64,000 bases of DNA from Escherichia phage vB_EcoM_VR26: the sequence record NC_028957.1. One strand, 5' to 3'. Under the pieces are notes generated by a model. That model saw only the letters and a list, made by a program, of their open reading frames with translations, had not been told where the DNA came from and searched no databases. Positions 527 to 52,593 of this stretch are shown here, piece by piece (positions within the stretch are counted from its first letter, which is position 1; each line of letters starts with the position of its first letter). Position numbers and translations under genes: made by a program.

Positions 527-1120
527 TTACTTAAGTGAATTGATGTATTCTTCAATGTCAGCGGACGTGGTATCCACACCAACCTGTGGACCTTTGAAGG
601 TTTCAACACGCATCAGAGTGTCTTCAATATCAATCTTAGTCAATGCAGCGATTTCAACAACATCATCTGCAGTCGCAATACCCAGGGCAGATACCTTACG
701 AGTTTCGCGGATGTATTCCAGTTTAACAGCTAGTTCCTGACGAGAATCATCCAGCTCTTTAACTTTCAATTTAATTTCATTACGCATTTCAACATAATCA
801 TCTGCCTTCTTACGAAGTTGTTTAGCGGTGCGACGATACAGGAGACCCAGTTTAGCATGGACTTGGACATCAGCACCATCAGCAATCAGTTTACGGATTT
901 CACGCTCTTTTGAAGCAGCGAGCTGGTCTTTTTCATTCGCTAACTCGCGGATGCGTTTTTCTTCATTAACAGACTTAACGTGGGCAGTCTGGAGCTCAGT
1001 AATCTTGTCAATCAGGGTAGAAGCCGCTTTAGTATATTGGTCTTCAATAGACAGGTTTTGTGCCATTGCAGTACCCAGTTTGGAGCGGATGAATTCAACA
1101 AGTTTCTTTAAAGTATTCAT
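527..1120 (-). CDS. hypothetical protein, predicted coiled-coil rich
   Basis: 197-aa ORF with ATG start, preceded by an early-promoter stem-loop element; charged heptad-like sequence; no family recognised. Confidence 0.5.
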
Positions 1121-6584: not shown

Positions 6585-7261
6585 TATATTACCTTATTAA
6601 TTTTATCAAAAAGTTCTTCGAGTGTGCCATCGTTTTTAATAACAATGTCACTAGCTAGTGGTGGAAGTCCAGCTTCCGTAATGTGTGTATCAGTAGAATG
6701 ATTTGCTTCATCGCGTTCTACAAAGATTATTGTAGCACCCATCGCCCGAAGCGAATCAAGTTCGTTCTTTTGGCGAACATCAGGGACAACGTAATATTTA
6801 TATCCAGAATAGAGGTTGTCAAGATAATCGCACGCAAAAGTTTTAATCCAAAACATGCTGTCGAACTCTGTACAAACGATGTCAGTTCCAAGGGTCTGCA
6901 TGAAACGTCTAACTGTCCAGGGCTCAACATTATTTAGTGTGTGAAATTCAATGATTTTACGAACCATATCTGGATTCGGAAGGTCAAGATTATATTGTTG
7001 TTTCAACCATTCAAGAGCATCAACCAGAAGAATATGAGCTTCAGTGTTGTTCATTATCAAGGTTTTTTCGCGGTCATAACCTTGTCCATCAAAATTTTCC
7101 AGGGTCAAATTGTGTGGCAGGTCTTGACGAACCCACGCTTTATAAAGCGCTTCTTTAATTGGACCAGCAAGTTGCCACTTTGTTCCGTTTTGACTAATAA
7201 CATAATCAGCAGTCGTATCTTTACCACTGCGTTTTTTACCCACAATCGCAATTAATTTCAT
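6584..7261 (-). CDS. 1: gp1 deoxynucleoside monophosphate kinase
   Basis: MKLIAIVGKKRSGKDTTADY P-loop and strong similarity to T4 gp1 as recalled. Confidence 0.9.
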
Positions 7262-7857
7262 ACGTTTCTCATAGATGGATGCATTGACTTAGACCTGATT
7301 TCCTGTTGCATTGCTGCATTACTATCAATCTGTGGTCTACCTTCTATTATTATACCATCAATTTCTACAGCAAAAGACTTAAAGTTAAAAGTTGCTGTTG
7401 CGTTGATGGCAGGGTCAGAATCTTCTTTATATGAATACTGAATCTCTGACAGGTCGGACGGCCATGCTCCATAGTAATGGATTGACATGACAATTTTGTC
7501 CTTGTTGTTATCTAAGATATGAAGCGTGACCGCTTCGGGACGACCCTTTGGATGCCATGCTTTTGATTCGTGTGTGATGTAGTTATTAAGCGAGAGCATC
7601 CATTTATAGATGTCAAGCCATGCCCTTAGGTCTTTGTCACACAGAAAGTTAACAATCAGCGGGTCGAATTCTATTGTACTACCAGGAAGACTGGAGCGAT
7701 TTATACCTTGCGTTCCACCGGGGACATCCGTCACAGGAATGTGAACCCCTGGGAGGGTAACGTCTTGAACGTTGAGTTTAAAAGTCTGTGTGAGGTTTGA
7801 ATCGCTTACCTCTAATATAAAGTTAGTCGTGTTAGTTTGATTATATAAACCTGACAT
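7258..7857 (-). CDS. 3: gp3 tail tube terminator / sheath stabiliser
   Basis: Start set at the internal ATG (MSGLYNQ) after an AAGGTG SD; the longer track ORF would overlap gp2; assignment by synteny and size. Confidence 0.65.
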   Translation of the reverse strand: MSGLYNQTNTTNFILEVSDSNLTQTFKLNVQDVTLPGVHIPVTDVPGGTQGINRSSLPGSTIEFDPLIVNFLCDKDLRAWLDIYKWMLSLNNYITHESKAWHPKGRPEAVTLHILDNNKDKIVMSIHYYGAWPSDLSEIQYSYKEDSDPAINATATFNFKSFAVEIDGIIIEGRPQIDSNAAMQQEIRSKSMHPSMRNV

Positions 7858-7868
7858 AGTGCACCTTG

Positions 7869-7907
7869 TTTGCTTTAAACCAATCAGTGTTATAATGGTT
7901 CTAGACC
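7869..7907 (+). promoter_or_regulatory. MotA-box middle-promoter-like module, antisense to gene 2
   Basis: Forward strand reads TTTGCTTTA, 13 nt, TATAAT, then the palindrome-containing GGTTCTAGACC; same module as upstream of rnlB and uvsY. Confidence 0.45.
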
Positions 7908-7942
7908 TTTTGTCCTTACCAATAACACTGACCGATAATAGA

Positions 7943-8776
7943 TTATGAATTTCTCCATACTTTCTGGGAAGAGAATCTTTTGCCTTTCGACATAAATTGT
8001 TGCAATGGAAGCATAACAACGTTTGCCCAGTCGCTGGGCTTGATTTCAGTGATAGTACCTTTTATATTACCAGGTATATATGCTTTAATCATCTGGTCAG
8101 CCCCTTTAAATCCCTTCACCTTTGACCAATCAATCTTCAGATGAGTCTTGTTCGTAATCGTAGGAGTATTAGCATATTGCTTAAGCAGTTCCTCAAGGAA
8201 CTCTTGACGTGCCTTCGGTGGAATATAGTGCAAGTTCAAACCATACATCAAATTGTGCTTACCCAACCCAAGATAAATGATTAACGGGTATTTGTCCCAG
8301 TACGGAAGAGTATCCTTATGCTTTGCATCATAGATATAAGCATAAATCTTACCTGGTTGAGGTTTAGCCGTTACGTGCCCTCTGACAGCTTTCTTAATTG
8401 TCTCTGCGAACCATCTGGCAGATTTGGTGTTGCTTGCAGCGCCTTCGTTAGCAATCTTATCTCTTATGCTCTTTCTAAAGCTATTCACCATTATTAGCTG
8501 GCGTTCAGCCTTCGTAAGTTTACCAGCAGGTTTCTTTTTGAGTTTGGATACTTTATAAGCAGTCTGAATTCTCGAATGATATCTTGACATGCTTTTGGTA
8601 AAGGTTGAATAGTTGATTCCTTTCTCTTCAGCAAACTTTTTCGAGGTCATTCCCTTTTCTTTTGCTGTATAAAATTCAACCCCTATCTCAACCCATTGTT
8701 GTTCGGATTTACTGGGTTTCGGACCCGGTTTATCTGCAGATTCATTGATAAATGTAAAAATACTCATCCTTTCCAT
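7943..8776 (-). CDS. 2: gp2 DNA end protector
   Basis: 277 aa; synteny and similarity to T4 gp2. Confidence 0.85.
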
Positions 8777-9213
8777 CCTAATTTTTTCAGTGAGTTTTCA
8801 GTGATTATCCTAAACGTTATACCCATTTTATCTGCCGTAGATTGTGCAGCTTTCCATTTGTCCGAGTTAACAGCCCAGGTATACATCTCGTTAATAAATC
8901 TCTTTTTGCTCGCAGCGGTATTATTAACAGGTTTGGTTGGTGGTCTTGTTTCTTTTAATGGCTTAACTTCGAAAAAGAACTGTTGTCCTGTATCAAACTT
9001 AACCCAGAAATCCATATAATACCTGCGCTTTTTACCATCGGCATTGCTAAAGTAAGGGATGATAACAGTCTCAGAACCCCATTGAACAACGTTCGGATGG
9101 TTGTCGAGCCATCTCATAAGCCAGGCCTCCCAGCTTGACCGGTATTGTATTTTCTTCCAGTCGCCCTTATATTTTTCTATATTAGTGGGCTTAAATTTCC
9201 CGGAGTATGCCAT
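8764..9213 (-). CDS. 4: gp4 head completion protein
   Basis: 149 aa; GGAGG SD; synteny with T4 gene 4. Confidence 0.85.
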
Positions 9214-9241
9214 ATAGCCTCCTAATAAATATTGATATACT

Positions 9242-9249
9242 TATTTATA
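9242..9249 (-). promoter_or_regulatory. late promoter TATAAATA for gene 4
   Basis: Reverse strand reads TATAAATA about 28 nt upstream of the gene 4 ATG. Confidence 0.6.
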
Positions 9250-9261
9250 AATGGAGGCTTT

Positions 9262-9864
9262 ATGCTTTTTTCATTTTTTAACCCAATTGATTATGATGCT
9301 AAAACAATCAGAAAAAACCCTGCATCATTGACGAAAGAAGACGTCTTAAGCATTCCAATGACTGACATTTTCAGAAATTATCGTGCTTACTTTGATAAGG
9401 TCGCGGTCAATTATACACCAAAAACCTATTACATTGCCGGAGCTCCACGCCCGGAAGAATTAGCATATCAGCTATACGGCAACACTCAGCTCTATTGGGT
9501 TCTCCTTATGCTCAATGATATCTATGACCCGTATTATGGTTGGCTTTGTACCCAAGAAGCATCGTATCAAGCATCAATTCAGAAATATTCAAATGTCGGG
9601 GGCAATCAGGTCCTTTATCATGTGAACGAAAACGGTGAGAAGTTCTGGAACCTTGTTTCTTATCCTGATAATCCATACACCTGGTACGATAAAGGCGATA
9701 AAAACAAATTATATCCGCAATACGAAGGTCCATTAGCCGCAGTGGATATCTATGAAGATGCTATTCGCAAAAATGAATACAAACGAGAAATAAAGATAAT
9801 CGACCCTAACGATATCGAATCTTTTATTTCGGCGCTTATTCGTGAGATGGAGAAGTCGCTATGA
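9262..9864 (+). CDS. 53: gp53 baseplate wedge protein
   Basis: In-frame ATG at 9262 with GGAGG SD (the track start at 9232 is TTG); 200 aa; followed by gene 5. Confidence 0.85.
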   Translation: MLFSFFNPIDYDAKTIRKNPASLTKEDVLSIPMTDIFRNYRAYFDKVAVNYTPKTYYIAGAPRPEELAYQLYGNTQLYWVLLMLNDIYDPYYGWLCTQEASYQASIQKYSNVGGNQVLYHVNENGEKFWNLVSYPDNPYTWYDKGDKNKLYPQYEGPLAAVDIYEDAIRKNEYKREIKIIDPNDIESFISALIREMEKSL

Positions 9865-11603
9865 TTAATATGTCAGATAGTGTAAGCTGGTTCGTCGGTG
9901 TGGTTGAAGACCGAATGGACCCACTGCAACAAGGCCGTGTGCGCGTTCGCGTGTGGGGGATGCATCCTTACGAAAAATCACAGGGACCTGTTAAAGGTAT
10001 AAGAACCGAAGACTTGCCATGGATGTCTGTGCTGATGCCAACATCATCTGCGTCGGTTTCTGGAATTCAAACTGCAATGACTGGTATGGTACCAGGGACT
10101 CAGGTATATGGTCACTTTTTAGACAAGTGGAAGCTCAACGGTCTTGTCATTGGTACATACGGTTCAGCCTCAAGACAAAAAGCAAATCCTAACGAAGGCT
10201 TCTCTGACCCTACGGGACAATACCCGCTTTATGTTGGTAATGATGCTGCGGCGCTTAACCGGGGCGGTGAAGTCGGTTATGATGCCACTTCAAACGTAAT
10301 CCAAGATTCAAACCTTGATTTAGGTATTAACCCCGATGGTCTTGATTTAAGTCAGGTTAAGCCAGACGATAACCCTAATTTCACAATTGAAAATATGCTT
10401 CACCGTGATGAGGGACTTCGTCTGAAAGTATATTGGGACACCGAAGGTTATCCGACTGTCGGGATTGGCCACCTTATTACACCACAACCTATTAGAGATA
10501 TGAATCAGATAAACAAAATATTATCTAATCAAATAGGCCGTGAAGTTAAAGGTAACCCTGGTGCAATATCAATGGACGAGGCTTCTGCATTATTCCAGGA
10601 AGACCTTAAGAAAGTACAAAGTGATATAGGTAGGCATAGTGTTGTAGGTCCGGTTTACAATAAAGAAAACCGTTCGAGACAAATGGCTCTTGAAAACATG
10701 GCTTTCCAAATGGGATTAGGTGGATTGGCTAAATTCCGTGGAATGCTTGGTGCAATGTTAATAGGCGATTATAAAAAGGCATTTGAGGAAGCTCGTAATT
10801 CAGTATGGTTTAACCAAACTAAAGGGCGCGCGTCAAGGGTATCAATGATTATCCTCACCGGTAATATGGAATCATATGGTATTATGGCTCCTAAAGAAAG
10901 ATCATTTAATGGTCGAATGTACCGAATGATTGAAACATTTAGTACCAAGGCTGGGGAAGACCCGGCTGACCCGTGGACCCCAGAAGATACAAGGATTCTG
11001 TTTAAAGAACCAGAATCAAGTTACAAAGGCGAATATCCTTACATACAGACAATGCAAACCGAAGGCGGTCACATTCAGGAATTCGATAACACTCCTGGGC
11101 AAGAACGTTATCGACTGATTCACCCGACTGGCTCCTACGAGGAAGTTGCACCAGATGGTCGTAAGACTTCGAAGACAGTAGCCGATGGTTATTATATGAC
11201 CCAGGGTGATTCGAGTACTTATGTCGGTGGTAATAATAAAGTCAACGTTGGTGGTGATGAAACCTATTACAATATGGCTAACGTTCGCAGACAAACCGAT
11301 GGAAACGAAAGCATTCATATCAGAGGGAATGAAACCAAAACTATCGAAGGTGACGGTACAATTATTGTCAAAGGTAATGTAAGTATTCTGGTCGAAGGTA
11401 ATGCTGAAATAACTGTTAAAGGTGATGCAAAAACTCTTGTCGAAGGTAACCATGATTATACAGTAAATGGTAATGTCAAATGGTCCGTTAATGGAAACGT
11501 TGATATGACTGTAGCTGGCAACTGGTCCGAGACTATGGCTTCAATGAGTTCTATTGCATCTGGACAATATACTATTGATGGTTCGAGGATTGACATTGGC
11601 TAA
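9861..11603 (+). CDS. 5: gp5 baseplate hub and tail lysozyme (cell-puncturing device)
   Basis: N-terminal NWFVGVVED...RVRVR, lysozyme motif GYPTVGIGHLI, C-terminal VxGN beta-helix repeats; 580 aa. Confidence 0.95.
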   Translation: MINMSDSVSWFVGVVEDRMDPLQQGRVRVRVWGMHPYEKSQGPVKGIRTEDLPWMSVLMPTSSASVSGIQTAMTGMVPGTQVYGHFLDKWKLNGLVIGTYGSASRQKANPNEGFSDPTGQYPLYVGNDAAALNRGGEVGYDATSNVIQDSNLDLGINPDGLDLSQVKPDDNPNFTIENMLHRDEGLRLKVYWDTEGYPTVGIGHLITPQPIRDMNQINKILSNQIGREVKGNPGAISMDEASALFQEDLKKVQSDIGRHSVVGPVYNKENRSRQMALENMAFQMGLGGLAKFRGMLGAMLIGDYKKAFEEARNSVWFNQTKGRASRVSMIILTGNMESYGIMAPKERSFNGRMYRMIETFSTKAGEDPADPWTPEDTRILFKEPESSYKGEYPYIQTMQTEGGHIQEFDNTPGQERYRLIHPTGSYEEVAPDGRKTSKTVADGYYMTQGDSSTYVGGNNKVNVGGDETYYNMANVRRQTDGNESIHIRGNETKTIEGDGTIIVKGNVSILVEGNAEITVKGDAKTLVEGNHDYTVNGNVKWSVNGNVDMTVAGNWSETMASMSSIASGQYTIDGSRIDIG

Positions 11604-11637: not shown

Positions 11638-12135
11638 ATGGAAGGAGCTTCAATCGATGTTACGTTTACCGCTCAATTAGAAACAAACGAAACATTAGTC
11701 GAAATAAATATAACTGAATATGAGGCCACCCCTGGCGTTAATGTTGAGGGCAATCATCTTTATGGTGTTTATGAATCCGTGTTCGGATTTGCAGATGATG
11801 CGCTTAAATATCGGCTTAACGATGAATTCAAAACTGCTGCTTCATGGGAAGAACTTCCTGTGGATAAGAGTACTCAATTGTATCTCTGGAGGGCCCCAGC
11901 GAGCCTCCAGAAGGTCTTTTCATACACAGTAACCCTAACCTATGACTTTCAAGAAGAGAGCTCTGGAGGAGACACAGGGAACTCTGGTGGTAGTAATAGT
12001 CGGGCAGGCAACGAGACAGACCCACCTCCGGCCCCAGTAAGAAAGACAATGACAAAAGTTTACACAAAAACTATCGTCGGTAACTGGAGCCGATGGGCAG
12101 ATAAATTGCGTTCATACGTATACGCGAGGGATTAA
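11638..12135 (+). CDS. gp5.1-like hypothetical protein
   Basis: Start chosen at the ATG at 11638 (AGGAG SD 5 nt upstream); an in-frame ATG at 11614 is also possible. Confidence 0.55.
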   Translation: MEGASIDVTFTAQLETNETLVEINITEYEATPGVNVEGNHLYGVYESVFGFADDALKYRLNDEFKTAASWEELPVDKSTQLYLWRAPASLQKVFSYTVTLTYDFQEESSGGDTGNSGGSNSRAGNETDPPPAPVRKTMTKVYTKTIVGNWSRWADKLRSYVYARD

Positions 12136-31971: not shown

Positions 31972-33951
31972 ATGGCTTTATTATCCCCGGGCATTGAGCT
32001 CAAAGAAACAACGGTCCAAAGCACTGTTGTTCGTAACGCGACGGGTCGTGCGGCGCTGGTTGGTAAATTCCAGTGGGGCCCAGCTTTCCAGGTAACTCAG
32101 ATTACAAACGAAGTTGAACTTGTTGATTTGTTTGGTGGTCCGAATAATGAAACAGCAGATTACTTTATGAGTGGGATGAACTTCCTGCAATATGGTAACG
32201 ACCTTCGTACTGTACGTGTTGTTAACCGCGACGAAGCTAAAAACGCATCCCCTGTTGCCGGCAATATTGAAACTACCATCGTTACTGCGGGTACAAACTA
32301 TGCTGTTGGTGATGTTATCCAGGTTAAGCATAACCAGACGGTCGTTGAACCAGCTGGGCGTGTGACCAAGGTTGATGTTGATGGTAAAATTCTGGCAATC
32401 TTTATTCCTACCAATAAGATTATTGCATTTGCTAAAACTATTAATCAGTATCCTAATTTGGGTAGTGCGTGGACTGCAGAAGTTACGACCACTTCTTCTG
32501 GTGTATCCGGTACAATCACTGTAGGTAAAATTGTTACCGATTCAGGTATTCTGTTGACCGAAGCAGAAAACAGTGAAGAAGCAATTACTTCTCTGGAATT
32601 CCAGGCATCTTTAGCCAAATATGCAATGCCAGGTGTTGTTGCTCTTTATCCTGGTGAAATTGGTTCGACTCTTGAAGTTGAAATCGTATCTAAAGCTGAA
32701 TTCGAAAAAGGTGCAACTACAAATCTGGATATTTTCCCTGGTGGCGGTACGCGTGCTTCTGTAGCTCGTGCAGTGTTTAACTATGGTCCTCAGTCCGAAA
32801 ACCAATATGCAATTATCGTTCGCCGTGATGGTGCAATCGTCGAAAACGTTGTTCTATCTACTAAGCAGGGCGAAAAAGATGTTTACGGTAATAATATTTA
32901 CCTGGATGACTACTTTGCAAAAGGTACTTCCAACTACATCTATGCAACATCTCGTAACTGGCCTGTAGGCTTCAGTGGTATTATCAATCTGTCGGGTGGT
33001 ATTTCTGCAAACGATAAGATTACTGCTGGTGATTTGATGCAAGGTTGGGACCTGTTCGCTGACCGCGAAGCTCTGCATATTAACTTGCTTATCGCTGGCG
33101 CGGTCGCTGGTGAAGGTGATGCAACTGCTTCCACTGTTCAGAAGCACGTAGTTTCTATTGCTGACGAACGTCAGGATTGTCTGGCATTCATTTCTCCTCC
33201 GAAAGGGTTGTTGGTTAACGTTCCTCTGACCCGTGCAGTGGATAACCTGATTGACTGGCGTACAGGTGGTGGTACATTCGATACTGATAACATGAATATC
33301 AGCACGACTTATGCAGCGATTGATGGCAACTATAAATATCAGTATGATAAATATAACGACGTTAACCGTTGGGTTCCTCTGGCAGCTGATATGGCTGGTC
33401 TGTGTGCTCGTACTGATGATGTTTCTCAGCCTTGGATGTCTCCGGCTGGTTATAACCGTGGTCAGATTTTGAACGTTCTGAAATTGGCTGTTGAGCCTCG
33501 TCAGACCCAGCGTGACCGCATGTATCAAGAAGCTATCAACCCGGTTGTTGGTTTCGCAGGTGGTGATGGTTTTGTTCTGTATGGTGATAAGACTGCAACT
33601 AAAGTTCCATCTCCGATGGACCATATTAACGTTCGCCGTCTTACGAATATGCTGAAGAAAAATATCGGTGACGCATCCAAATATAAACTGTTTGAGCTTA
33701 ACGATAACTTCACTCGTGCATCATTCCGTATGGAAACTTCTCAATACTTGGATGGTATTCGCGCGCTTGGTGGCATTTATGAAGGTCGTGTGGTTTGTGA
33801 TACTACTAACAACACCCCGTCGGTCATAGACCGAAATGAGTTTGTTGCTAGCATATATTATAAGCCTGCAAGGTCGATAAATTATATCGTGCTTAATTTC
33901 GTAGCAACAAGTACGGGCGCTGATTTTGATGAGTTGATTGGGGTGCAATAA
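31972..33951 (+). CDS. 18: gp18 contractile tail sheath
   Basis: 659 aa, same length as T4 gp18. Confidence 0.95.
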   Translation: MALLSPGIELKETTVQSTVVRNATGRAALVGKFQWGPAFQVTQITNEVELVDLFGGPNNETADYFMSGMNFLQYGNDLRTVRVVNRDEAKNASPVAGNIETTIVTAGTNYAVGDVIQVKHNQTVVEPAGRVTKVDVDGKILAIFIPTNKIIAFAKTINQYPNLGSAWTAEVTTTSSGVSGTITVGKIVTDSGILLTEAENSEEAITSLEFQASLAKYAMPGVVALYPGEIGSTLEVEIVSKAEFEKGATTNLDIFPGGGTRASVARAVFNYGPQSENQYAIIVRRDGAIVENVVLSTKQGEKDVYGNNIYLDDYFAKGTSNYIYATSRNWPVGFSGIINLSGGISANDKITAGDLMQGWDLFADREALHINLLIAGAVAGEGDATASTVQKHVVSIADERQDCLAFISPPKGLLVNVPLTRAVDNLIDWRTGGGTFDTDNMNISTTYAAIDGNYKYQYDKYNDVNRWVPLAADMAGLCARTDDVSQPWMSPAGYNRGQILNVLKLAVEPRQTQRDRMYQEAINPVVGFAGGDGFVLYGDKTATKVPSPMDHINVRRLTNMLKKNIGDASKYKLFELNDNFTRASFRMETSQYLDGIRALGGIYEGRVVCDTTNNTPSVIDRNEFVASIYYKPARSINYIVLNFVATSTGADFDELIGVQ

Positions 33952-34034
33952 TAAATTAGGGGATGAAAGTCCCCTTATCTATTATGGTTGAGTGTAATTG
34001 CTTAACGAAATAGCTTAGACCCATTATACCGTGT

Positions 34035-34042
34035 TATAAATA
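34035..34042 (+). promoter_or_regulatory. late-promoter motif TATAAATA in the 18-19 intergenic region
   Basis: Exact TATAAATA about 115 nt upstream of the HNH ORF. Confidence 0.45.
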
Positions 34043-34157
34043 AAAGCATAAGGCTCCTATAAACGATTATAGAGCACGCAACCTTTAAGTAAGGTGTTTA
34101 TACATAACACGGATAAAATCGTCCCAGAATCGTTCTGGTGTGTGATTTGAGGCTACT

Positions 34158-34841
34158 ATGATAGTAAGTGATAAACAACTCGTTAATGTAACAAACAGAA
34201 ATGTGACAAATTTGCGTGAGCAAGGTTATGACGTTTTAATCGGAACAAAACATTTGGTGAAAATCGAGCATTTAGGTAAGCGAACTAAAATCGATTGCAA
34301 ATGTGATAAATGTGGTGATGAATACACTGTCACCCAAGATAAAATAAACGAAATCAATATCCAATTCTGCAAAAGCCATAGATGGGAAATTTATTCGGAT
34401 TTGCGTAAAGAATTTTGGAACACACCGGATGGACTAAAAATTCGAAAATCTAAAGGTGCAAAAATCTCCAAAGCCAAAAAGGGTATTCCTTGTATAAATA
34501 CACGCGGGGAATTAAATGGACGATATAATCCGAGATTACGAGAATTTAAACGGTATGCATATGCAGTTCGACAATTCACCGCGTTAAATTTTAAATCTGA
34601 AGTCGAAAATCTCCCAAATTTTGAAAAGACCGGGCGGGCTGGAATTGACGGTGCATATCAGTTAGACCACAAGGTTTCCATTAAATATGGATTTGAAAAT
34701 AATATAGACCCCTCAATCATTGGACATATTTTAAATCTTGAAATGATTCCGTGGGAATTGAATCGAGCAAAGGATATAAATAATAGTATATCAATTCTCG
34801 ATTTACAAAAATATATAGAAAATTATCATAGGAAACAATAA
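34158..34841 (+). CDS. HNH homing endonuclease (Mob-like)
   Basis: C-terminal DHKVSIKYGFENNIDPSIIGHILNLEMIPWELNRAKD HNH motif; Cys cluster CKCDKCG; inserted between 18 and 19. Confidence 0.75.
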   Translation: MIVSDKQLVNVTNRNVTNLREQGYDVLIGTKHLVKIEHLGKRTKIDCKCDKCGDEYTVTQDKINEINIQFCKSHRWEIYSDLRKEFWNTPDGLKIRKSKGAKISKAKKGIPCINTRGELNGRYNPRLREFKRYAYAVRQFTALNFKSEVENLPNFEKTGRAGIDGAYQLDHKVSIKYGFENNIDPSIIGHILNLEMIPWELNRAKDINNSISILDLQKYIENYHRKQ

Positions 34842-43752: not shown

Positions 43753-44757
43753 TTAACTAATTAATGCAATCCAAACATGTCTTAATGTATCTCTTACATT
43801 TGCAATGAGTTGCTTTTTAACTTCAACAGGATTTTCTGCATCGGTTAATTCTAATTCTTCACGGGACGCCTCTTCCAAAATATCTTGGGCTGTTAGTCCC
43901 ATTACCTTTCCGAAATCCTTAGGCGTTACTTCACCAATCTTACTGATAACATTGTTAATACGGTTAACAGTCACATAATCAGTGAATTGCCACAGCAGGT
44001 CCATGTCATCTTGGGACAACACAACAGCAGCCTTGATAGGCTTATCAGACTTTTTCTTTTCGCTAAATTTAGAGTTCTTACATTTAATCGCTACGCGCTC
44101 ACCATTAGGTAACCAGGCAGGAGTATCAGGTTTAAGAACATACCCTTCTGCAGTGAATACTTTACCTTCAACCTTTGCGTCAAAATCGGTGGTATTCGCG
44201 GTAGTCAAACCCGCATTATCTACTGTAAAATTGTAATCAGGAACCACAGAATCCAGGTCGTTAGGGAGCTTAATCAAGTCTTCAAAGCTACCCGTAGCCA
44301 GGCGTGGGGCAACCTTAAATTTATGGATAATACAGAAGGCTTCCATCAATGAATCAGTCAAAACAGATTCAGAGCCATCTTCCTTAGTAACGCGGATATC
44401 AAATACATAGAAATCTTTGTCACCATAATCCACATTCTTCTGGATACCGGCCCCGGCAAACTCACCATAAATTTGGTATGATTGATAATTAATATCCTGT
44501 AAAAGTCTCTGCACAGTTTTAATGGAATCTGCATAGTTCTTGAGTACAATTTCGTAGCCATAGAAATCTTCTGCAGGTGGGATAGGTCCAGTGCGTTTCG
44601 CACATGTCACATTGTCTTGTTCAATGATTAATGAAAAGTTGGTGCCATGAATCTTTTCACGCGCTACCCATTCACCGCTGGTGAAGCCTTGCAGGCGAAT
44701 CTTTTCAATGAACTTGTTGTTATAGTGATTTTCAAGGCTGTTGTATTTCTTAAACAT
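43753..44757 (-). CDS. rnlB: RNA ligase 2 (RnlB)
   Basis: 334 aa; adenylylation motif KIHGTN; very close to T4 Rnl2 as recalled. Confidence 0.9.
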
Positions 44758-44843
44758 AATCTCTCACTTTTGATGTTATAAATATCATTATAAATTATAC
44801 CCTCTATACTTTCTTTCTCTGAAAGGAATTAATCGTATCGGAA

Positions 44844-44883
44844 GGTCTAGAACCATTATACCACAATTTTATTTGAAGCAAAA
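44844..44883 (-). promoter_or_regulatory. MotA-box middle promoter upstream of rnlB
   Basis: Reverse strand reads TTTGCTTCA, 13 nt, TATAAT, then GGTTCTAGACC. Confidence 0.55.
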
Positions 44884-52555: not shown

Positions 52556-52593
52556 GGTCTAGAACCATTATACAGCCATAAAATTAAAGCATT
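52556..52593 (-). promoter_or_regulatory. MotA-box middle promoter upstream of uvsY
   Basis: Reverse strand reads AATGCTTTA, 12 nt, TATAAT, then GGTTCTAGACC. Confidence 0.6.

Follow-up and report, generated by a model that had tools for sequence, protein, structure and literature searches.

A conserved candidate middle promoter on the antisense strand between late genes 3 and 2 of T4-like phages

Why would a T4-like phage keep a near-consensus middle promoter on the strand opposite two of its late genes? The question arises from a 64,000-nucleotide (nt) stretch of Escherichia phage vB_EcoM_VR26 (NC_028957.1), a T4-like phage; we call this stretch the window. At 7869-7907 on the + strand, in the spacer between genes 3 and 2, it holds a module composed of a MotA box, a 13-nt spacer, the hexamer TATAAT, and an 11-nt block. 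We consider it likely that this deeply conserved module is an active, MotA-dependent middle promoter for a non-coding transcript complementary to gene 2. In the middle phase of infection, + strand transcription would begin around A7903, with MotA on TTTGCTTTA and AsiA-remodelled sigma-70 on TGnTATAAT. The resulting untranslated RNA would extend, antisense, into gene 2 from its 3' end or, in relatives that bear one here, into an HNH endonuclease gene. From the sequence we infer that the promoter fires and that its RNA is non-coding, with an end probably within or near gene 2, brought about by Rho or by an unmapped terminator. Its likeliest role would be convergent or antisense transcription over the distal part of the 4-2-3 operon before late transcription sets in.

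The full sequence of the region is gtTTGCTTTAaaccaatcagTGtTATAATGGTTCTAGACCtttt. It opens with the MotA box TTTGCTTTA (7869-7877, +), whose core TGCTTTA (7871-7877) occupies -32 to -26 from the predicted start and which fits the consensus (a/t)(a/t)(a/t)TGCTTtA given in a passage of PMC1524935. The 13-nt spacer that follows (7878-7890, +) ends in an extended -10 motif 'TGn' (TGT, 7888-7890), a feature of about half of the T4 middle promoters (PMC2988021). Next come the perfect sigma-70 -10 hexamer TATAAT (7891-7896, +), invariant in the module-bearing orthologous gene 3/2 spacers, and the block GGTTCTAGACC (7897-7907, +), which spans -6 to +5 and contains the predicted start. We placed this start at A7903 by analogy with the mapped starts of T4 PuvsY and P34i; that of PuvsY is an A 7 nt past the -10. 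A start near 7903 had also been proposed in the first-pass annotation (a model's reading of the letters alone), and the analogy with PuvsY agrees with it. The arrangement has what defines a middle promoter, namely a MotA box, a -10 at 11-13 bp, and no sigma-70 -35 hexamer: a sigma-70 consensus scan returned no -35/-10 pair ending at 7896, and the -35 position reads GTTTGC. Both motA and asiA are annotated in the closest relative, phage VR7, which serves here as a proxy for VR26, whose own motA/asiA region lies outside the window.

How special is this combination within the window? The complete pattern TGCTTNA–N12/13–TATAAT–GGTTCTAGACC occurs exactly three times, at 7871-7907 (+), 44844-44880 (-), and 52556-52591 (-). 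Taken by itself, the 11-mer GGTTCTAGACC is also found exactly three times with 0 mismatches (7897-7907, +; 44844-44854, -; 52556-52566, -), while the chance expectation is 0.52 even with 1 mismatch permitted. The strict pair TGCTTNA-N11-14-TATAAT is present three times against 0.12 expected, a count reached in 0 of 100 shuffles. Since these pairs fall at the same three places as the 11-mer, none of the strict MotA-box/-10 pairs in the 64 kb is without it. The first-pass annotation had described such a threefold module, with reverse-strand copies upstream of rnlB and uvsY, and these statistics and positions bear it out. The second exact copy (44844-44880, -) lies 91 nt upstream of rnlB, within a 129-nt spacer that T4 lacks. 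The third (52556-52591, -) is the uvsY promoter, the positional ortholog of T4 PuvsY/oriF. Identity among the three is confined to the MotA box, a few bases before the -10, TATAAT, and GGTTCTAGACC with 1-2 further bases; neither the 12-13-nt spacers nor the sequences downstream are alike, and the three T4 copies show the same limits. Between the uvsY copy and the gene 3/2 copy 17 nt are identical, and the identical 17-mer is present in three copies in this lineage, as it is in VR20 and VR25.

The strongest argument comes from comparison with other phages, for which we used gp3-anchored IMG/VR loci together with RB69 and T4, while the phages CHI14, EcS1, PspYZU05, and ZZ1 were identified separately. 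The order MotA box, spacer of 12-13 nt, TATAATGG, pyrimidine run, AG..CC recurs at the same site and on the same antisense strand in many Tevenvirinae, so that the forward, gene 2-antisense copy already noted in the first pass proves conserved in both position and orientation. The module is held by T4, RB69, VR7/VR20/VR25, JS98-like phages, Serratia phage CHI14, Escherichia phage EcS1, Pseudomonas phage PspYZU05, and Acinetobacter phage ZZ1. In T4 the site reads aTGCTTTA-N13-TATAAT-GGGTCTAAGTCC (+). The corresponding block is GGGTCTAAGTCC in T4-like phages, GGTTCTAGACC in Gaprivervirus, GGTCCTAGGTC in JS98-like phages, GGTTTTAGGTCTC in RB69, GGTTTCAGGTCC in CHI14, GGTTTTAGGTC in EcS1, GGCTTTGAGGCT in PspYZU05, and GGGTTTATCCCC in ZZ1. 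What these orthologs have in common is TATAATGG, the core of the MotA box, and a spacing of 12-13 nt, and the remaining sequence of the spacer differs. The module is missing only from loci in which genes 2 and 3 lie just 5-14 nt apart (L025-L027 and L029) and from locus L024, whose 134-nt spacer has an unrelated sequence. That a promoter architecture is kept on the non-coding strand in phages of four host genera is our main argument that the site is used.

The kind of element is already known, and the gene 3/2 site itself has been predicted once, in a relative. The RB69 ortholog appears as Pm:79256 (+), with a hidden Markov model (HMM) score of 16.3, in Additional file 4 of Nolan et al. 2006. 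It is a positional ortholog in the gene 3/2 spacer, on the + strand, reading CGCTTTA-N12-TATAATGGTTTTAGGTC; it differs in having its own version of the block and in being listed by coordinates only. Our literature search found no report in which the gene 3/2 site is mapped, named, or discussed; searching with the literal sequences returned nothing, and no genome-wide T4 start-site map was found.

What kind of RNA would such a promoter produce? The predicted product is a non-coding middle transcript antisense to gene 2 (7903-8776, +), its 3' limit being set simply at the end of gene 2, the gene for the DNA end protector (7943-8776, -; stop codon 7943-7945). There is no conserved open reading frame on the + RNA: the first ATG frames of the window, T4, RB69, and a JS98-like phage have 16, 45, 31, and 14 codons, respectively, and are mutually unrelated. 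Scanning 7500-8400 on both strands with 4227 Rfam covariance models gave no match with an E-value up to 1. We considered a structured small RNA and set the idea aside, given this empty scan and the fact that RNA 7903-8062 folds like its shuffles (z = -0.42). An intrinsic terminator at 8025-8039 (GCCCAG-TCG-CTGGGC plus a T-rich tail), which would yield an RNA of ~145 nt, has no counterpart in JS98-like or T4-like loci and was taken as a chance occurrence. Untranslated antisense RNA is ordinarily ended by Rho.

RNA sequencing (RNA-seq) of T4 offers a hint in the same direction. With default settings, featureCounts counts reads without regard to strand. The time-resolved T4 dataset of Wolfram-Schauerte et al. 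was built from directional libraries and counted with these defaults, and the label 'middle' is given there to a gene that first attains 10% of its maximal level in the interval from 4 to 7 min. These authors assign T4 gene 2 to 'middle RNA / late protein', and genes 3, 4, 53, 5, 5.1, and 6-10 to 'late RNA'. We found no credible sense-strand middle promoter for T4 gene 2, and the single late promoter of the 4-2-3 unit lies upstream of gene 4. With one shared late promoter and no sense middle promoter, extra reads at 7 min over gene 2 alone are what an antisense start predicts. An antisense RNA, one of the products envisaged in the first pass, is the most economical one and fits gene 2 being the sole 'middle RNA' among 3, 2, 4, 53, and 5. 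The RNA classes also suggest that the antisense RNA stops short of reaching far into genes 4 and 53. The supplementary files searched for the RNA-seq studies of DksA and MotB gave no match for these T4 genes.

Critically speaking, several points weigh against an active antisense promoter. Experimentally identified T4 middle promoters number 58 (Hinton 2010 table), PrnlB, PuvsY, and P34i among them; the gene 3/2 promoter is not in this list, which has nothing near 76.0 kb, and its omission could reflect a negative test and not simply the lack of one. The T4 hint consists of gene-level, default-count classes and not of strand-specific 5' ends, and it is unspecific and weak because genes 11, 35, and 37 are likewise classed 'middle', as is gene 34, which holds the antisense promoter P34i. 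Finally, the sense strand of the spacer folds better than its shuffles in the window, VR20, JS98-like phages, RB69, T4, T4-like phages, PspYZU05, and ZZ1 (z from -2.1 to -4.2), and such a hairpin could account for part of the spacer's conservation.

Before the alternatives are weighed, the block past the -10 deserves attention, since it links the module to PuvsY. Over the 16 nt past the -10, the gene 3/2 block is more like the PuvsY of its own genome than that of other genomes; across six genomes, an equally good correspondence arose in only 4 of 720 pairings. In RB69, for example, the gene 3/2 block matches the RB69 PuvsY. Differences in host polymerase fail to explain this co-variation, as T4, RB69, VR-type, and JS98-like phages have E. 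coli as their common host. When all 58 catalogued middle promoters were extracted from T4, a block of the G(G/A)nTCyA type after TATAAT was found in just three: PuvsY (GAATCTAAGTCC), P34i (GGTCCCAGAGAG), and PnrdC.7 (GGTTCTAAGCCC). A strict scan of the T4 genome for TATAATG(R)(R)TCTAAGTCC also gave three hits, namely PuvsY, the gene 3/2 spacer (+), and the srd/modA spacer (+). As a side observation, the mapped T4 promoter PnrdC.7 (53,325) reads GCTTTA-N12-TATAATGGTTCTAAGCCC, which is nearly the 17-mer of the window; the block is therefore not limited to origins or antisense sites.

Some of the block is what RNA polymerase itself prefers, as it favours a GG discriminator, a pyrimidine at -1, and a purine at +1 (through sigma region 1.2 and start-site preferences). 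These preferences leave the '..CC' at +3 to +6 and the lineage-specific identity unaccounted for: the block is identical among a few promoters per genome and differs between genera sharing the host polymerase. This lineage-specific identity may stem from conversion over short tracts, from a co-evolving factor, or from some role of the 5' end of the RNA. We place the gene 3/2 module in a 'PuvsY-type' subclass of middle promoters, marked by a perfect -10, a GG discriminator, a pyrimidine run, an A/G start, and ..CC; the subclass also takes in the oriF and oriG promoters and T4 PnrdC.7. The likeness to T4 PuvsY itself extends over the MotA box, the 13-nt spacing, the extended -10, TATAAT, the stretch G(G/A)nTCTA(A)G..CC, and the A start. 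On the other hand, PuvsY is a sense promoter that drives a protein-coding mRNA and is a demonstrated origin, whereas the gene 3/2 copy is a predicted promoter that points at the 3' end of a late gene, with no open reading frame to serve.

Could the site act mainly on the other strand, as an intercistronic hairpin of the 4-2-3 mRNA, with the promoter look of the + strand being incidental? Such a hairpin might serve message stability, processing, or a coupling of gene 3 translation to that of gene 2, and genes 2 and 3 do appear to be co-transcribed, the spacer being without a late promoter. In the window, the hairpin of the sense gene 2-to-3 mRNA (7879-7936, -) reaches -26.1 kcal/mol (z = -4.2), the flank of the -10 (CCAATCAGTGTTATAATGGT) pairing with ACCAATAACACTGACCG and the promoter sequence being looped out. 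Hairpins at the same place, built from other arms, are found in VR20 (L015), JS98-like phages (L017/L018), PspYZU05 (L028), ZZ1 (L030), and a T4-like locus (L033), with z from -2.3 to -3.8, and the spacers of T4 (z -2.1) and RB69 (z -3.4) form one too. However, a hairpin with shifting arms does not explain an invariant TATAATGG and a correctly spaced MotA box in eight lineages: the arms lie across the -10 in VR and JS98-like phages, wholly past the start in T4 and RB69, and across the whole promoter in CHI14 and EcS1. Sense-strand folding is not significant in the latter two (L022, L023), which counts against the hairpin, and at uvsY the same module is a proven promoter. Because the arm sites vary and the promoter elements do not, we regard the hairpin as a device that accommodates the promoter insert by looping it out of the late mRNA, or that stabilises this mRNA, and not as the cause of the conservation; the opposite view seems to us distinctly unlikely. 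The first-pass annotation had also suggested that the promoter could contribute to the expression of gene 53 (9232-9864, +). On this view, read-through would supply genes 53 and 5 (the latter from 9861, +) with middle-time sense RNA for baseplate proteins. Orientation alone speaks for this, at a distance of 1.33 kb, and we judge it highly improbable: in T4, gene 53 has its own late promoter upstream, genes 4, 53, and 5 stay 'late RNA' and gene 2 does not, and the 1.3 kb of untranslated RNA needed would be a typical Rho target. The same annotation saw a possible protein-binding site in a palindrome, which it gave as GGTCTAGACC. That sequence is not present; the 11-mer is GGTTCTAGACC, which is imperfect, one base off dyad symmetry. 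In favour of a site for a dimeric DNA-binding protein, or of copies that are functionless relics of duplication or conversion, one may cite the three identical 17-mers of the window lineage, VR20, and VR25, the likewise three T4 copies of TCTAAGTCC, and the lineage-specific identity of the block, which could mean a co-evolving factor or conversion. Yet the dyad symmetry is lost in the orthologs GGTCCTAGGTC, GGTTTCAGGTCC, GGTTTTAGGTC, GGGTCTAAGTCC, and GGGTTTATCCCC, which keep GG, a pyrimidine run, A-G, and ..CC, so the palindrome reading is not supported. The block moreover spans the start site, where RNA polymerase itself contacts the DNA. Identity among the copies covers the boxes and stops with the block past the -10, which argues against conversion tracts and led us to reject a recent cassette duplication. 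Altogether, we find the protein-site or relic explanation very unlikely.

A further alternative is compatible with promoter activity and differs in the purpose of the RNA: the element would be an origin of the oriF/oriG type, whose R-loop transcript primes leading-strand synthesis rightwards to genes 53 and 5, and it would supply the missing middle-mode element of the oriE-region origin. We hold this to be possible, though doubtful. Against it, T4 origin plasmid screens reportedly yielded only ori(uvsY) and ori(34). The transcripts of oriF and oriG form R-loops that prime replication, and both of these T4 origins, known at nucleotide resolution, consist of a middle promoter and a downstream unwinding element (PMC3016281). 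The gene 3/2 module offers a predicted middle-mode promoter, as expected of the ~100-bp minimal origin described there (PMC3016281). oriG itself lies antisense within late gene 34, and the RNA of the gene 3/2 module would be non-coding. Its TATAATG(G/A)nTCyA extension is shared, among the 58 T4 promoters, by PuvsY, P34i, and PnrdC.7 alone, and the co-variation with PuvsY (4 of 720 permutations) points the same way. In T4, the stretch downstream of the module is A-rich, as in the oriF unwinding element, and the module lies 3.3 kb upstream of the annotated oriE in its own direction of transcription. According to a review, the oriE mechanism is unresolved and R-loops are possible there; the same review states, however, that no middle-mode promoter lies near oriE, which uses an early promoter (PMC3016281). 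The block also occurs on ordinary mRNA promoters (PnrdC.7 and PrnlB of the window) and may just mark strong promoters. From +1 to +60, the window copy has an AT fraction of 0.67 and a purine fraction of 0.42, ordinary for the genome; as a test for an unwinding element or R-loop propensity, these measures (A+T, purine, G, and C) have no power, since they do not set even oriF and oriG apart from other T4 promoters.

Among the closest known counterparts is T4 P34i/oriG (TTTGCTTCA-N13-TATAATGGTCCCAGAG), likewise an antisense middle promoter in a block of late genes, with a primer RNA that runs against gene 34; gene 34 is, like gene 2, 'middle RNA / late protein' in the default-count RNA-seq. P34i differs in lying within a coding sequence, in its less similar block, and in an origin function shown on plasmids (PMC3016281), whereas the gene 3/2 module is a candidate. 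Pushed to its furthest, the origin idea would make the module a third R-loop origin of the oriF/oriG type across the Tevenvirinae and the real initiator behind the 'oriE-region' origin, which we think unlikely. The block, from about -6 to +12, would then be a recognition element for a phage factor, or have an RNA-level function, that marks origin-type promoters, and the antisense copy in the srd/modA spacer would be a candidate for the oriA-region origin. The reading that we prefer remains that of a middle promoter whose non-coding RNA runs antisense to gene 2.

Besides the three exact copies, the window contains a fourth, diverged one with a T4-type block, TGCTTTTA-N13-TATAAT-GGGTCTAAGC (34010-34050, -), in the spacer after gene 18. 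About 45 nt past its -10 can be aligned with the gene 3/2 copy (CAATTACACTCAACCATAATAGAT vs CAATAACACTGACCGATAATAGAT). Beyond it comes a bidirectional terminator hairpin, a strong one, at 33958-33975 (fold z = -3.9; module and hairpin lie within 33948-34050), and the sequence predicts a discrete middle-time RNA of ~70 nt from the strand opposite the late genes. Next to this module, between genes 18 and 19, lies an open reading frame of 227 aa (34158-34841, +) that has no Pfam hit and matches PHROG 5104, of unknown function; in T4, nothing but a short spacer separates genes 18 and 19. The fourth copy had escaped the first-pass annotation, as had the deep conservation and the kinship with the two known R-loop origin promoters. 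Overall, the first-pass reading is supported in part. Short promoter modules repeated at several intergenic sites, some with a stem-loop or terminator, recall the PeSL (promoter-early stem-loop) cassettes of T4-like phages, to which the fourth copy may be compared. In a passage of PMC4122927, the PeSL cassettes are described as an early promoter plus terminator, located in hyperplastic regions and mediating gene shuffling there. The gene 3/2 module, on the contrary, is of MotA type and sits at a conserved core-gene junction, with a position that is stable across genera. We therefore do not count these modules among the PeSL cassettes, as they are of MotA type and not early and only the fourth copy adjoins a terminator.

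Antisense orientation is conserved at a second place as well. In T4, RB69, and JS98-like phages, a module in the srd/modA spacer points into the 3' end of the early gene modA. It is located at 11863-11910 (+) in T4 (L070), with the sequence TGCTTTA-N13-TATAATGAATCTAAGTCC, and at 790-840 (+) of the RB69 locus L075; further instances are in L082-L088. This module is not in the 2010 T4 table, and it was predicted in RB69 as Pm:12081(+) in the supplement of Nolan et al. 2006. The searched passages of that paper (PMC1524935) contain no discussion of Pm:79256(+) or Pm:12081(+), or of the orientation of the former. In VR20 and VR25, the sequence downstream of weak modA-like matches was searched, and no such module was found there. 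As for the rnlB copy of the window, the rnlB gene (43753-44757, -) carries the Pfam domains RNA_ligase and T4_Rnl2_C of an RNA ligase 2 gene, and the uvsY gene downstream of the third copy (-) is ~61% identical to T4 UvsY. Just past its block (44833-44843, -), the rnlB copy has CCTTCCGATAC in common with the PuvsY of RB69, and the gap between gene 24.2 and rnlB measures 9 nt in T4 vs 129 nt in the window. Together, these two observations suggest that the rnlB copy is an ectopic transfer of a PuvsY-like cassette.

The window belongs to the VR7-like T4 relatives of the genus Gaprivervirus, and its nearest relatives, vB_EcoM_VR7 and VR25, are ~97-98% identical over 7000-9900 (97.6% for VR7). Genes 2 and 4 were called from the open reading frame list and named via the VR7 annotation. 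Gene 3 (7258-7857, -), which encodes the tail completion/sheath stabilizer protein, is 51% identical to T4 gp3, and its ATG and Shine-Dalgarno sequence adjoin the MotA box on the opposite strand. Gene 4 spans 8764-9213 (-). The only exact late-promoter box nearby (TATAAATA) lies upstream of gene 4, and a sense-strand late promoter was looked for in the gene 3/2 spacer without success; as the sole exact late box nearby precedes gene 4, we take genes 4, 2, and 3 to be one late operon.

This operon is also a place of insertions. A MobB-like HNH endonuclease gene of ~655 bp (at 1443-2099 in locus L001) is found in VR7, VR25, fPSFA, and one JS98-like phage. It is inserted directly after GATAATAGATTA, where the promoter spacer meets the stop codon of gene 2 (7942/7943 of the window), and the window shows the 'empty' form of a homing-endonuclease site. 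VR7 and VR25 keep the module, and in all these HNH-bearing phages it would read antisense into the endonuclease gene. In some relatives, an extra hypothetical gene of 729 nt lies between genes 2 and 4 (Shigella phage fPSFA, L002, 2924-3652), a second insertion polymorphism of the 4-2-3 late operon.

T4 serves as the reference system both for sigma appropriation and for replication primed by R-loops, and the list of its promoters is regarded as all but complete. A near-consensus middle promoter that occupies the 'wrong' strand of a late-gene junction, and that has been kept throughout the radiation of T4-like phages on Escherichia, Serratia, Pseudomonas, and Acinetobacter hosts, would imply a conserved pre-replicative transcript. 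What stands out is the conserved antisense orientation, as at srd/modA, combined with an origin-type core that co-evolves with PuvsY. Since this core matches the oriF promoter and co-evolves with it, the site bears on how the oriE-region origin fires. If it makes only an antisense RNA, that would still be a rare, deeply conserved phage antisense transcript, and a warning that gene-level RNA-seq counted without strand information can put late genes into the wrong time class.

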